Positions 3,095 through 36,200 of a stretch of DNA of 64,000 nt are shown here, piece by piece; position 1 is the stretch's first letter; each line of letters starts with the position of its first letter. Source of the DNA: Escherichia phage FV3; sequence record NC_019517.1; one strand, given 5' to 3'. The notes under the pieces were generated by a model. The model saw nothing but the letters and a program-made list of their open reading frames with translations, was not told the DNA's origin and ran no database searches. A program made the translations under genes and the position numbers.

Positions 3095-3284
3095 TTCAGT
3101 TCTGATCAGGATGAAATACCGTAACTGGAAAGGTGTTGTTGCAGATCGCTGCGTTACTGAGCCTAGTTTATGGTTTGGCTCTACAGATTATCATAAAGAA
3201 GATCAGTGGTTGATGCATGCATTTGATGTAGACAAGGGCGAATATCGTGACTTCGCTTTAAAAGACATTCTTCAGTTTTACTAA
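3063..3284 (+). CDS. hypothetical protein
   Basis: 73-aa ORF, ATG with GAGGAGAGAG RBS. Confidence 0.45.
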   Translation: METKKVFNPCDSVLIRMKYRNWKGVVADRCVTEPSLWFGSTDYHKEDQWLMHAFDVDKGEYRDFALKDILQFY

Positions 3285-3296
3285 GGAATCTTAACG

Positions 3297-4280
3297 ATGA
3301 TGACAAAGTTAACTCTTGAGCAAATTTTAACACTAAAGCAACAGGGATACACCAATAGACAAATTGCTCGTGAATTTCTAGGTCGTGAGTCACGTGAGAG
3401 CTGGATCCGGCTACAGCTTAAACGTGCACAAGAGAATATGTCAGAGATTGTAGGAGAGGCAACGGAGCGCTTCCTTGAAGAACACAAAGGTGCTAAAGTT
3501 TGGGTGTATGATACAGAGACATCCCCAACAAACGGCTGGTTCTTTGGGCATTATAAGACCAACATTCAAACCTGCGGTATTGAAATTATGCCCTATATGC
3601 TAACTTTCGCAGGTAAATGGTTAGACAGCCCCAGTGTGGTTGACTGTGCTCTTCCTGATTACAAAATGTGGGGCGAGGATATCCACAACGATCTTGAGCT
3701 GATTCAAGATTTGTGGTATTATCTGGATAAATGTGATGTAGCAGTAGCACACAACTCTGGTTTTGACTGTGGGTGGGCCAACCAACGATTTGCATTTCAC
3801 GGTTTGCCGCCAACAAGCCCATACAAAGAGGTTGACACCCTCAAGATGATTAAAAAGGCATTCCGTTTGAATGCAAACACGTTAGAGTATGCATGTAAAT
3901 ACTTCCAACTGGCCCGACAGAAACTAATTGACCACACATTTGAAATGTGGATCAAGTGTGTTCATGGTGATCTTGAGGCGTTTAAACAGATGCGGGAGTA
4001 TAATGTTGGGGACATCTTGTCTCTGGAAGGCCTATATTTGCTGGCGCGTCCGTTTGCTAAGCAGCACCCCAACATGTCGTTGTACTACCAAGATGAGGAG
4101 TCAAAAGTTCGTTGCCCACGTTGTGGTGGAGAACACCTTCACGAGGAAGAGGCTTTGGCGTATACTCAACTGAGTGCATTTAAAACCTACCGCTGCGAAG
4201 GTTGTGGATCTGTTGTTCGTGATCGTAACAACATCCGTACCCGAGAAGAGATGAAAAACACCCTGATTCAGATAATCTGA
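3297..4280 (+). CDS. DnaQ-like 3'-5' exonuclease with N-terminal HTH and C-terminal zinc ribbon
   Basis: 327-aa ORF; HTH-like LKQQGYTNRQIAREF, exo motifs VYDTETS, AHNSGFDCGW, YNVGDIL, C-terminal CPRC...CEGC. Confidence 0.5.
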   Translation: MMTKLTLEQILTLKQQGYTNRQIAREFLGRESRESWIRLQLKRAQENMSEIVGEATERFLEEHKGAKVWVYDTETSPTNGWFFGHYKTNIQTCGIEIMPYMLTFAGKWLDSPSVVDCALPDYKMWGEDIHNDLELIQDLWYYLDKCDVAVAHNSGFDCGWANQRFAFHGLPPTSPYKEVDTLKMIKKAFRLNANTLEYACKYFQLARQKLIDHTFEMWIKCVHGDLEAFKQMREYNVGDILSLEGLYLLARPFAKQHPNMSLYYQDEESKVRCPRCGGEHLHEEEALAYTQLSAFKTYRCEGCGSVVRDRNNIRTREEMKNTLIQII

Positions 4281-4325: not shown

Positions 4326-5132
4326 TTGAGCAAGAAAGAGTCCAACGACAAATATTACACAGACCCTGAGTATGCAGAATATCTTGTTGGTAAAGTAAAA
4401 GTTAGGTATGGGAATTGTGCATACGTTGAGCCTTCTGCTGGAAAGGGTTCTTTTTCAAAACTATTTTCAGAGATACTGTCGTACGATTTGGTACCAGATC
4501 CTGAATTTGAAGGCCCAACACCGTGTATTAAGGCAAACTTCTTAGAGGTGTACCCTAAGGCTGATGTCTTCATAGGTAATCCTCCATTCGGCAAAAATTC
4601 GTCTTTAGCTTGCAAGTTCTTTAACCACTGTGCATCATTGCTAGAGCCTGGCGGGGCTATAGCCTTCATCTTGCCACGGACATTTGAAAAAATATTTTTT
4701 GCAAACAAGCTGGACATGTCAATGCACCTTATCTACAGCGAAAGGTGCCCCAAGAACTCGTTTTTACTTAACGACAAACCTTATGACGTGCCATGTGTTT
4801 TCCAAATTTGGGAGAAAAAGGTGTGCAATAGGGATCCTGTAGAGATTGGGGAGAATAAGTTATTTTCTTTTAGCACACCAGATGACTACGACTTCTGCAT
4901 AAGACGTGTTGGGTATAATGCTGGAAAAGTATTGGGGGAGGATGACCCAAAATCTGAAGAATCAACATATTTCATAAAATCTTTAGTTGATGGTGTTGAC
5001 AGAGTGTTTGCTGAATGCTATTCTTCTTTTCAAGAAGAAGCAGGTAAGACTGCTGGAATGAAGAGTATAGGCAAGAAAGAACTACAATACATTTTGGAGA
5101 CTAGGTATGATCAAAAGTATAGACTTGACTAA
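4326..5132 (+). CDS. N6-adenine DNA methyltransferase (motif I then NPPF)
   Basis: EPSAGKGSF (motif I) and IGNPPFGK (motif IV); no in-frame ATG before the motifs, proposed TTG start at 4326 after GGAGG RBS. Confidence 0.6.
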   Translation: MSKKESNDKYYTDPEYAEYLVGKVKVRYGNCAYVEPSAGKGSFSKLFSEILSYDLVPDPEFEGPTPCIKANFLEVYPKADVFIGNPPFGKNSSLACKFFNHCASLLEPGGAIAFILPRTFEKIFFANKLDMSMHLIYSERCPKNSFLLNDKPYDVPCVFQIWEKKVCNRDPVEIGENKLFSFSTPDDYDFCIRRVGYNAGKVLGEDDPKSEESTYFIKSLVDGVDRVFAECYSSFQEEAGKTAGMKSIGKKELQYILETRYDQKYRLD

Positions 5133-31165: not shown

Positions 31166-31381
31166 ATGAAGATAGAAATATTTGGTGGAGCTGACAACAC
31201 TCGTGGCCTGATTTACCTTGAATTCGATGAATCATACCTGCCAGAGGTGTTAAATATAGACTCTGTTGCTGAGGCTTTGGGAGTAAACCCTAAAGAACTC
31301 CACTCTTGTGCTGAGATCGATGGTTGGGAAGAGACCATGAACATTGATTTCAGTGAAGTAGAGGATGAACCGCTGGACTGA
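31166..31381 (+). CDS. small acidic protein, MKVK family
   Basis: 71 aa, MKIEIFGGADNT...; last rightward gene before strand switch. Confidence 0.5.
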   Translation: MKIEIFGGADNTRGLIYLEFDESYLPEVLNIDSVAEALGVNPKELHSCAEIDGWEETMNIDFSEVEDEPLD

Positions 31382-31593
31382 CACACAATTAGCTGCCCGG
31401 CTAAAGTGCTGGAAGCACCTATAACACATCTTTCAACTAAATTTCCTACCACCACAATCACTTACCTCCCACACATGACTGTTTGCTTGTTTAGTGAGCA
31501 GTCATTCCTTGACATTCTTGCCTATCCTGATAAAATTAAGTTCTTCTCTTTTCTTTTACCGAGTAATTCGGGTTTTCTGTTCTCTTCGGTTTG

Positions 31594-31810
31594 AAGGGGT
31601 ATGGAGATACACCTGAGTGAACAGGGTGAACAACCGAACCTTTAGCTATGGCATTAGCATGGCGAAGCGGACGGGTGACGAAAGAGGGGCCGGAGGACAC
31701 CAGTCACTGCCATATGGTATATGGGTGATAACCTGAAGAGTCTGAATAAGTGTTTAAGTACCAGTCAGAGGAAAAGGTGAATGGTAGCCGAAGGGGGAGG
31801 GGGGTTTCTT
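31594..31810. other. G/purine-rich non-coding segment, candidate structured RNA
   Basis: No ORF >=60 aa on either strand; composition unlike flanking AT-rich DNA; ends in G-run GGGGGAGGGGGG; strand undetermined. Confidence 0.3.
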
Positions 31811-32589
31811 GTATCTTTAATTTGTATACTTTATATACACTTGTAAACCAATTCAATTAGAATATGGATACCACACAAAGTGGATAGAGGCAAATATTCC
31901 CTATTAAACTTGAATTATTTATAGAAAATACCACAACACTGCTTAAGTCTTTGATTTTACACACAAATATTACAAATATCCTGCCTCTATATTTAACATA
32001 CCTGTAACATATTCCATACTCTCCCTGATTGATCAATTCCCCAACTACATCCCCATATTTTCCCTTCCTGTACTACCCCTGCCCCGCCGGGAGTCCCGTC
32101 ATATCTGGCTTTCCAGCAAATATCACACCCACAAATATCATTGCCTGAAGAGGGTTTCATCCCATAATACCTGCCTTACCCGAAGAGCGCTTCATACACC
32201 ACGTAAATTTTTTAATTGACCTGCAATTTTCCTGCAGACCCACCCCCTGCCCAGCCGGAGAGGTTGGCTTTTCCCACACAGGCCTGAAGAGTCAGCCAGA
32301 AATATCTGAAGGGGGTCCAGTTCTACCACGATTTTGACCTGACCTACAGGAGCGCTGCCAGGCGGACGAAATGGGAATACTTCTCATTCTTATAACAATT
32401 CTCAAATATCGGGGCAGTGAGGCAAATTAATAGGCGAGGCCGTTCACACAGTGGCACAACATTTGCAAGCTATTTTGCGGGGGTGAATGAGAATACCTAT
32501 CATTGTGAGAATAGTTATCATTACGGGCAATTTAACATAATACCCATTATGCGCACCACTGGCGATACATACAGGGATTGATAACATGG

Positions 32590-33230
32590 GTTACTGTTTA
32601 CGCATATAACAATTGTATTTCTTATTATTTGTGGGGGATATAGTTAGCAACCAATAGATTAGTTATTAACCTGCGGACTTCTGACCGTCTAGACGTCCAA
32701 ACGCCCACACCACAAGGATTATACATACACTCCTGCATGTAAACAGGGCCGCAAAAATGCTACCATACCAGTTTGTAAATTTTCCATGCAGCACTTGACA
32801 AAGAGGAGAAAAACTTGTCTGACACACTGGACACCTTATACACCTTATACACTTTCGATACAATAACGATTGTTATTATTTCATGTTTCACTGTTCACGT
32901 ATAGATTGTTCCTGCATAGACTGTTTACGCCTGGATAGTTTACACCTTGACAGTTTACGCAGATATGATAAGCCATGACATTCGTTTGCATAGTTGCCTT
33001 ATTGTTACAGGTAAAACAATTACATTGTTAACTATTTCTTATCTTTCTCTTAGTCATCTAATGATTCCAGTCAGTATAGTTATGTACAGTAAACATTAGA
33101 CGACTAAATATTTCTCTGATTATAGTAACCTATCGTGACAATTTCTAACTGTTTACGAAAAATGTTGACACCTGGGCAGGTTTATGTTATGCAGTTTGTA
33201 CGAATAATTATTTTGTACAGGTATTGACTA
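32590..33230. repeat. iteron-like degenerate direct repeats (TGTTTACGC family) in non-coding strand-switch region
   Basis: CTGTTTACGC / TGTTCACG / GTTTACAC / AGTTTACGC / TGTTTACG / GTTTGTACG copies, densest 32889-32960; AT-rich; no convincing ORFs. Confidence 0.4.
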
Positions 33231-33605
33231 TTCCGTTATTCTGTGGTTGGAATAAATACTTTGCAGGCTATAGAATGGTGATCGTACGTGGATTCTGAGA
33301 TCTGTCGGCTATAGTTACACCCGATTTTTCACGTAGGACACGCTTTTTGGTTTGTGTAAGTGTATGACTTATAAGGGTTTTTAATTGTTGACAGTATACT
33401 GAAGATGTGCATCAGGTTAAATTTTGTGCAATAGCTGCATTACGTGCAATTTTGGGAGAGAAAACGGGTAAAAATAGCACCGCTACCACACAATGAAAGG
33501 TTATGCAATAGCTATTTTACATGTATATTTGTACAGTGTGCGGGATTGATGGCTCGTCAATTATTCCACTTGTCAGGTAGGGCCGTTTATGGTAGGAAAA
33601 GAGCA

Positions 33606-33633
33606 GACAAAAAGAAAGGGGCCTAAGCCCCCT
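33606..33633 (-). terminator. intrinsic terminator (leftward transcripts)
   Basis: GGGGGC-TTA-GGCCCC hairpin followed by U-run on minus strand, just after stop of 33647..33910. Confidence 0.45.
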
Positions 33634-33646
33634 TGATAATGTTGTA

Positions 33647-33910
33647 TTATTTGTTGCTCATCCAGTTTTCCCAAGCTGCCTGATAATCTGCCTCACTGCG
33701 GCGGATCTCTTCTTGTTCTTCAAGCCGGATCTCTTCTTCCAGGTACCCAAGGATATCGGATTTTTTGGTCTGGCGTAACATCCAATCATCTTTTTTACGA
33801 GTAAAGATCTTGTACGCTTTCTCGCAAACCTCTTTTTTACTACCTTTTTGGACTTCAAGAACTTTGTAGGCCATGTACTGAACTAGTTTGAGCTGATCAA
33901 GACGTTTCAT
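33647..33910 (-). CDS. hypothetical protein
   Basis: 87-aa ORF. Confidence 0.5.
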   Translation of the reverse strand: MKRLDQLKLVQYMAYKVLEVQKGSKKEVCEKAYKIFTRKKDDWMLRQTKKSDILGYLEEEIRLEEQEEIRRSEADYQAAWENWMSNK

Positions 33911-35966: not shown

Positions 35967-36200
35967 TCAACACTTTTCAAAAAATTTTTCTGCCGTGATA
36001 TTCTTCCCGGTAGGGTTCGCTACTTTCAAAATTTTATCATGCACTGGACGCCCAAAAGAATAAGCGCCGTACACAGTGCACCAATAATCGCCGTCAGGCT
36101 GTACTATTACCGCCGCATAGGGTACGCCTTTTTCGTTTTTGCTGACAAAATAGATCACATTGCCATTAATAGCCTCAGCGCGTTTAATTTGTTCCATCAT
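35967..36200 (-). CDS. hypothetical protein
   Basis: 77-aa ORF. Confidence 0.45.
   Translation of the reverse strand: MMEQIKRAEAINGNVIYFVSKNEKGVPYAAVIVQPDGDYWCTVYGAYSFGRPVHDKILKVANPTGKNITAEKFFEKC

Follow-up and report, generated by a model that had tools for sequence, protein, structure and literature searches.

A tandem array of TGTTTAC-type sites lies at 32890-32964 of the window (the whole 64,000-nt stretch of the Escherichia phage FV3 record NC_019517.1 that was analysed), in unique DNA beside what we predict to be the left-end copy of a 459-bp direct terminal repeat (DTR). The array is best explained as a counterpart of the SRL region of phage T7, that is, as a set of sites that would serve maturation, packaging or protein binding of the chromosome end. 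We hold this assignment tentatively, at a probability of about 0.45, and base it on likeness of layout to known systems. The repeats themselves are probably protein-binding sites, judging from the way in which their sequence is conserved. The features on which the argument draws are as follows (coordinates are those of the window; TRF, Tandem Repeats Finder).

31382-33646 (no strand): gene-free gap between convergent gene arms, holding the genome terminus (ORF list, terminator scan, relatives)
31420-31810 (+): ultra-conserved block downstream of promoter P1, ending in the G-run GGGGGAGGGGGG at 31793-31804 (alignments)
31509-31536 (+): P1, a sigma-70-type promoter, TTGACA / 16-bp spacer / TGaTAAAAT, directed toward the DTR (promoter scan)
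32020-32360 (+): C-rich block with CCTGAAGAG-type repeats (32144, 32179, 32283 and 32305; also 31732), on the right-end side of the DTR (motif scan)
32361-32819 (no strand): DTR equivalent, 459 bp (alignment to the Gotham ends and the bov10K2 start; published relatives)
32530-32556 (no strand): cross-genus island in the DTR, ATTTAACATAATACCCATTATGCGCAC, 100% identical in Vequintavirus
32593-32603 (+): single TGTTTAC unit in the DTR, ACTGTTTACGC; its core is present in 15/16 aligned genomes, ECML-10 having GTTTAT
32738-32746 (-): inverted TGTTTAC copy in the DTR (motif scan)
32820-32870 (+): array of GACAC / ATACAC units, 9-10 bp period, copy number variable among relatives (TRF, 32831-32852, period 9)
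32890-32964 (+): the 'iteron-like' array, five 15-bp units, each a core AYWGTTYACRY with 4-5 bp of free spacer (TRF, register, information content)
32972-32991 (no strand): last copy of the direct repeat GCCATGACATTCGTTTGCAT, marking the junction of an alignment gap (16-genome alignment)
33148-33203 (+): two more TGTTTAC units (33148-33158 and 33192-33203) around an orphan inward TGTTGACA element (motif scan, alignment)
33615-33634 (-): intrinsic terminator that closes the leftward gene arm (terminator scan)

A gene-free gap between convergent gene arms

In blastn searches the region 31300-33700 matched about 120 phage records at 90-95% identity. Most of these records were deposited as Escherichia phages, and those that we opened belong to the genus Vequintavirus (rV5, FV3, Murica and others); the window is from a Vequintavirus, an rV5/FV3-like E. 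coli myovirus. The blastn matches of the gap DNA are confined to this genus. The same gap was found in about 120 Vequintavirus records, and also in Septuagintavirus, Mydovirus and Seunavirus. Host origin of the gap was considered and rejected, there being no match in E. coli genomes.

Genes of the + strand stop at 31381 and genes of the - strand stop at 33647; thus the two arms converge on the gap. The sequence-only reading, which was made from the letters of this DNA and a list of its open reading frames, had correctly noticed that transcription switches here from rightward to leftward, but its title called the place a divergence region, which is contradicted by the positions of the gene ends and by the - strand terminator (33634-33615).

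The description of the stretch as gene-free proved right. Each of the six ORFs overlapping 32590-33230 is intact in at most 2 of 15 relatives, most of which annotate nothing there; window ORFs starting at or after 31704 are each intact in at most 11 of 15, and no conserved ORF was found from 31700 on. Hidden genes past the ultra-conserved block were rejected on the same ground, no ORF surviving in the relatives. No tRNA or tmRNA gene was detected in the gap, and an Rfam scan of this gap and the gaps of four relatives gave no match at E<=1.

The gap holds the predicted chromosome terminus

The record of phage Gotham annotates a repeat_region at 1-459 and at 136567-137025, which aligns to window positions 32361-32819. 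The bov10K2 record begins at the same base as the Gotham left end (window 32361), and the matches to EdH4, ECP2303, Gotham and Pr121LW stop at a record end whose position corresponds to window 32819. Because the repeat present at both Gotham record ends aligns to 32361-32819, and because further records have their first or last base at these positions, we infer that this segment is the DTR of FV3, the relatives used being 90-95% identical to it. With Gotham aligned to the window, the mature left end would start with GGCGGACG (32361) and the mature right end would stop with AAAACTTGTC (32819). A terminal repeat of 459 bp has been published for Gotham and EdH4 (PMC7471380, PMC6563267) and corresponds base by base to window 32361-32819, and terminal redundancies of 458 bp were reported for EdH4 and HdK5 (PMC6563267). 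With the predicted DTR inside it, the gap is, on alignment evidence, the physical terminus (concatemer junction) of a chromosome with short direct terminal repeats of the T7-like kind.

We aligned the window with the gaps of 15 other Vequintavirus genomes (16 genomes in total). Across the relatives the DTR is 86-100% identical to the window, while both its flanks are hypervariable, with frequent indels.

The terminus can be followed outside the genus as well. Klebsiella phage KPP-1 (Mydovirus) has a 514-bp DTR of the T7 type, which was recognized from twofold coverage and with PhageTerm (PMC9862379). This DTR sits in the equivalent convergent gap, and an annotation of the same 514 bp closes the record of phage DP. 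Gaps of about 2.2 kb are also present in Salmonella phage PVP-SE1 (Seunavirus), together with the edge motifs, and in E. coli phage A73 (taken here to be a Septuagintavirus; its record states Vequintavirinae only); the end of the UPEC06 record coincides exactly with the homologous left DTR edge. The left edge (marked ^) reads GCTGCCA^GGCGGAC in the window, GCTGCCA^GGCACGG in A73 and GGTGCTA^GACGGAC in KPP-1 and PVP-SE1; the right edge has the form CTTGACAARGAG...TTGT(C/GTT)^T across the genera. By this sequence comparison the DTR edges are homologous across related genera. In A73 and UPEC06 a G-run (GGGGGAGGGGGAGGGGG in A73) was seen just inside the predicted left DTR edge (L012, reverse complement, 2955-2985; L013, record end); a G-run of the window similar to that of A73 is located about 560 bp upstream of the left DTR edge.

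The island at 32530-32556 (ATTTAACATAAWAC...TTATRCGCAC) occurs also in A73, UPEC06, KPP-1 and PVP-SE1, and with Vequintavirus these cover Septuagintavirus, Mydovirus and Seunavirus (coordinates L014:3230-3258; L024:1562-1590; L012, reverse complement, 3146-3180). Serratia and Erwinia phages still match the gap at this piece, and a blastn search of the gap with word size 7 against A73 and UPEC06 found nothing but this 30-bp island. As a universal cis site, e.g. for terminase recognition, the island is the leading candidate, ahead of the TGTTTAC array.

In the rV5 genome paper this stretch was drawn as a 'non-coding' box (PMC3606486), left unexplained since; the present map places in it a predicted terminal repeat with flanking arrays. 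The DTR has already been published for relatives; for the flanking arrays we found no description in the literature searched. Vequintaviruses are in wide use as therapy and biocontrol phages, and many of their database records are opened at arbitrary points. The map tells annotators where the true chromosome start is expected and which of the small ORFs called here are spurious, and it points to cis elements that should be retained when Vequintaviruses are engineered or rebooted. It also offers a second system, one driven by host RNA polymerase, in which to ask what arrays beside short terminal repeats do.

Structure of the TGTTTAC array

The clustering of TGTTTAC repeats is statistically real. 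Sequence CTGTTTACG with at most one mismatch occurs 19 times in the 64-kb window (11.2 +/- 3.1 times in shuffled sequences); 6 of the 19 matches fall within 564 bp (32594-33157), all three exact copies being among them and on the + strand. For the longer 11-mer A[CT][TA]GTT[TC]AC[GA][CT], with an expectation of about 1.1 +/- 1.0 per 64 kb, six matches were found in the window, five of them in 32593-32950. All repeat copies listed in the sequence-only reading were recovered exactly where it had put them.

TRF detected a 15-bp array at 32919-32960, and the 15-bp register reaches 32890-32964; the unit at 32905 is degenerate. The spacing of 13-18 bp proposed earlier is a loose description: core-to-core distances are 30, 15 and 15 bp, with the degenerate unit inside the 30-bp gap. 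Similarly, the 'AT-rich' setting fits the stretches at 31800-32000 (26-31% GC) and 33000-33100 (27% GC) rather than the array itself, where the 100-bp windows have 35% and 40% GC vs a mean of 43% over the whole window. Isolated units, kept in nearly all relatives, are found at 32593 (+), 32738 (-), 33089 (-), 33148 (+) and 33192 (+).

To determine information content per position we used 76 units (53 distinct), collected by a regular expression with seven core positions fixed. Positions -2 to +8 carry 0.6-2.0 bits and the spacer 0.1-0.2 bits; positions -2, -1, +7 and +8 were left free by the expression and are conserved all the same. Spacers differ among units of one genome, so the units are not recent identical duplicates. 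A constrained core combined with a free spacer argues for protein-binding sites rather than neutral duplications, and in this respect the repeats do look like what they had been proposed to be. The array would offer one site every 15-16 bp, made up of the conserved 11-bp core plus a spacer, to a sequence-specific DNA-binding protein. A reading of the array units as sigma-70 promoters was rejected: TTGACA is present in TTGACAGTTTACGC without an acceptable -10 hexamer at 16-18 bp.

Comparison with T7 and with terminase recognition sites

The concatemer junction of T7, reportedly described by Dunn and Studier in 1983, is made up of phiOR, SRR, a 160-bp terminal repeat, SRL and phiOL. When the T7 genome was run through the same tools as the window, we recovered the terminal repeat at 1-160, the CCTAAAG SRL array with a 13-bp period at 174-340 and the gene-less promoter phiOL at 405; at the right end we found phiOR (39229), directed into the junction, and CCTAAAG copies just before and within the terminal repeat.

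Both T7 and the FV3 gap have a short direct terminal repeat and, just inside its left-end copy, a tandem array of short repeats in which a conserved core is combined with a variable spacer (CCTAAAG at 13 bp in T7, AYWGTTYACRY at 15 bp in FV3). Both have a dispersed second motif on the other flank, the FV3 motif CCTGAAGAG resembling T7 CCTAAAG, as well as a promoter upstream of the right end directed into the junction (phiOR in T7, P1 at 31509 in FV3) and a promoter-like element inside the left end. The TGTTGACA element at 33163, whose -10 is weak, is a possible counterpart of phiOL. Going from left to right, the elements of the gap follow the T7 order, with P1 first, then the CCTGAAGAG-type copies, the DTR, the tandem arrays and finally this element. 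There are also differences. The FV3-type phage is a myovirus of 137 kb and depends on host RNA polymerase; the core of its array is unrelated in sequence to the T7 SRL heptamer; its DTR is 459 bp long vs 160 bp; and both its gene arms run toward the ends. Moreover, the FV3 flanks carry different motifs, i.e. no single repeat family is present on both sides of the DTR, the left flank having dispersed CCTGAAGAG-type repeats and not a tandem array.

Arrays of terminase recognition sites near the cut are known as lambda cosB (R3-R2-R1), P1 pac hexamers, SPP1 pacL/pacR and T3/T7 pacB. Such recognition sites usually co-evolve with the terminase. The FV3 array is like cosB and pac arrays in having several short sites of the same orientation at about 50-200 bp from the position of the mature end: its units are situated in unique DNA beside the left-end DTR copy, 71-145 bp from the inner DTR edge (32819), a distance from the predicted cut that stays below about 200 bp. 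It is unlike them in that it is not kept among genera with homologous DTR edges and shows a fivefold variation in copy number.

As a counterpart of the T7 SRL, which is its closest analogue, the TGTTTAC array would place or load the machinery for packaging and end maturation close to where the inner edge of the repeat is cut, in the manner of cosB or pacB; alternatively, it might bind an end-associated protein.

Variation of the array among relatives

The number of units per array ranges from 2 (LL12, ECML-10) to 10 (rV5) in the 16 genomes, always with 15-16 bp spacing, and the array always terminates at a conserved anchor, ATGATAAGCCATGMCATTCGTTTGCAT; a genome with fewer than two units was not found in this sample (n=16). 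Nowhere in the gap is conservation lower than in the array zone (32830-32950), which shows 47-62% identity and many indels. A tandem array was not found in A73, KPP-1 and PVP-SE1, where single units only were detected. These sister genera retain the gap, the DTR edges and one TGACAGTTTACAC unit; a longer unit occurs once in KPP-1 (TTGACAGTTTACAC) and once in PVP-SE1 (GTGACAGTTTACAC). Given a copy number of 2-10 and an identity of 47-62%, the exact array is not critical. Since the tandem array is lacking in sister genera whose DTR edges are homologous, it cannot be a universal terminase recognition site.

Next to the array, at 32972-32991, the alignment has a 393-column gap that is filled in 15/15 relatives with roughly 240-350 bp each. 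In the relatives this segment is bounded by two copies of GCCATGMCATTCGTTTGCAT (20-bp direct repeats), so the window probably lost it by recombination between such repeats. The segment is evidently dispensable. In the relatives it contains an array of AACAA-type short repeats and several hairpins.

Variation of this kind would be expected if the array were a functionless variable-number tandem repeat, produced by slippage or unequal recombination near a recombinogenic end that is repeatedly nicked and re-synthesised. Hypervariable copy number, frequent indels on both flanks of a DTR that is itself conserved, and the loss of the array-adjacent segment through 20-bp repeats are in line with this explanation. 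However, cores are kept while spacers drift, both within and between genomes; nearly all relatives retain the isolated units at fixed positions, the extended unit is common to other genera, and every sampled genome has at least two units. We consider a functionless repeat unlikely.

Promoter-like elements near the array

Sequence TGTTGACA appears to be the extended -35 promoter class of this phage. It was found 19 times in the window, with 3.6 occurrences expected, and is mostly oriented along the local gene arm (+ on the left, - on the right, with three exceptions); a good -10 usually follows 16-19 bp later. Examples are located at 4994, 16259, 17650, 25037 and 30709 (+) and at 35972, 38082, 39469, 41991 and 46953 (-). 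A similar promoter was described for Certrevirus (PMC7344957). In the gap, TGTTGACA elements at 33163 and 33386 are candidate promoters with weak -10 sequences (TATGCA at 33188 and ATCAGG downstream of 33386, both poor hexamers). The first of them occupies 33163-33170 and is followed by TGT-TATGCA at 33185-33193; the -35 and the -10 zone are invariant among relatives, and the spacer is variable.

Single TGTTTAC units are located just upstream of the -35 and around the +1 of this inward element at 33163, whose conservation is promoter-like, and several units of the array overlap TTGAC-like -35 hexamers. With TGTTGACA being a hallmark of the phage promoters, the array could be seen as a set of operators for a phage regulator of the orphan promoters in the gap, which may be replication or entry promoters like phiOL and phiOR. 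Several observations make this interpretation improbable: the -10 hexamers are poor, there is no gene downstream in that orientation, and the TGTTTAC motif was not found at other promoters of the window.

The array as a possible replication origin

The sequence-only reading had put the region forward as a candidate replication origin or regulatory hub. Iterons of plasmid and lambdoid origins have a period of about 21-22 bp, and T7 replication uses origins of the promoter type. At an iteron-type origin an initiator would bind the direct repeats and melt adjacent AT-rich DNA. The FV3 array does consist of direct repeats with a conserved core in non-coding DNA; AT-rich DNA (27% GC at 33000-33100) follows in its vicinity, and cumulative GC skew reverses at the gap. 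Nevertheless, an origin of this type is quite unlikely: the period of 15-16 bp in 16 genomes would place neighbouring sites on nearly opposite faces of the helix; the copy number is unstable (2-10), in the least conserved part of the gap and at a chromosome end; in 15/15 relatives the AT-rich stretch is some 240-350 bp away from the array; no DnaA box was found in or beside the array; and no Rep/O/DnaA-like gene is nearby, the eight flanking proteins being without a significant Pfam domain and all belonging to PHROGs of unknown function. Furthermore, sister genera in which replication and packaging are of a shared style lack the tandem array. The rV5 authors attributed the local skew change to transcription orientation, and by their account the replisome is T7-like, its polymerase being of the PolA type and its primase-helicase of the gp4 type (PMC3606486).

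The SRL-like array thus probably does not fire replication as an iteron origin. What stands of the earlier proposal is a special cis-acting non-coding region; the tests of an iteron origin mostly fail, namely those of phasing, initiator gene and copy-number stability. Other parts of the gap are candidates for a replication role, e.g. the orphan promoters by AT-rich DNA as transcription-activated origins in the T7 style. The only strict DnaA box and the only IHF consensus in the gap overlap at 31955, about 930 bp from the array, and the gap has no Chi site. A literature search returned no transcriptome, origin-mapping or binding study of the gap region.

Other elements of the gap

Promoter P1 is strong and near-consensus, with a score of 11/12 and an extended -10; its -35 and -10 are invariant, and its spacer diverges in one relative. 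The block at 31420-31810 (about 390 bp) is 97-100% identical in the 15 aligned relatives and 97-99.2% identical in 117 records, so that this non-coding DNA is more conserved than the adjacent gene (88-90%); it stops just before the stretch of 26-31% GC. The block was matched neither in Rfam nor in E. coli and has no homologue in other genera; it may represent a new non-coding RNA or else an element of replication or packaging. A structured RNA at 31543-31815 was rejected, the fold z-score of -1.2 being not significant. The idea of a hammerhead, suggested by CUGAAGA, which fits the CUGANGA core, was dropped since there was no Rfam match and no convincing stems were seen by eye.

In the C-rich block, for which three exact and two approximate repeats within 32020-32400 had been claimed, CCTGAAGAG occurs exactly twice (32144, 32283); the third exact copy (31732) is outside, and the approximate copies are at 32179 and 32305. 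Copies of CCT[AG]AAG occur on the + strand of the same flank in A73, KPP-1 and PVP-SE1, and the longer CCT[AG]AAG[AT]G(TC) is present left of the terminal repeat, on the + strand, in all four genera (L024:795-1183; L014:2700; L012, reverse complement, 2496 and 2840). In A73 the flank left of the terminal repeat also has five TTGYC-CACAGAG repeats. On the opposite side of the DTR, the GACAC array begins at 32820, one base past the DTR edge, and the TGTTTAC array comes next.

A more far-reaching reading, which we offer as speculative and rather unlikely to hold as a whole, would make the entire gap a concatemer-junction machine in the style of T7, adapted in a 137-kb myovirus to the host RNA polymerase. 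P1 (31509) would then drive an ultra-conserved non-coding transcript of about 270 nt, ending in the G-run by AT-rich DNA; this transcript might prime replication or license end processing; and the CCTGAAGAG-type and TGTTTAC-type families would be landing sites marking the right-end and the left-end cut, respectively. If this is true, the TGTTTAC array would give myoviruses with a short DTR their first defined site of left-end maturation.

Some minor observations concern the gap and its neighbourhood. GATC is scarce in 31382-33646, with 3 sites vs about 12.7 expected from the window density of one per 178 bp. About 19 records labelled 'Campylobacter phage' (MG0656xx) are 88-94% identical to the gap; these host labels are doubtful, and the one record opened (A147) is unannotated and marked UNVERIFIED. 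Many relatives have an extra 420-bp gene (140 aa) between the gap and an 87-aa gene (at about 33640 of the window; L002:5605-6024, L007:4055-4474), the product of which is labelled 'Rel homology domain' in the Murica record; the gene is missing from the window, SYGMH1, pangalan, ECML-10 and APECc02. Finally, the terminal repeat contains tandem 18-bp units, TGAGAATAnnTATCATTG, at 32488-32522, and near-perfect palindromes, ATGATAAnnnTTATCAT, were seen in KPP-1 and PVP-SE1 (L014:3999-4015, 4143-4159). Both sequences resemble what we take to be the 7-1-7 consensus of the Fur box, TGATAATnATTATCA, with 11-13 of 14 positions matching.
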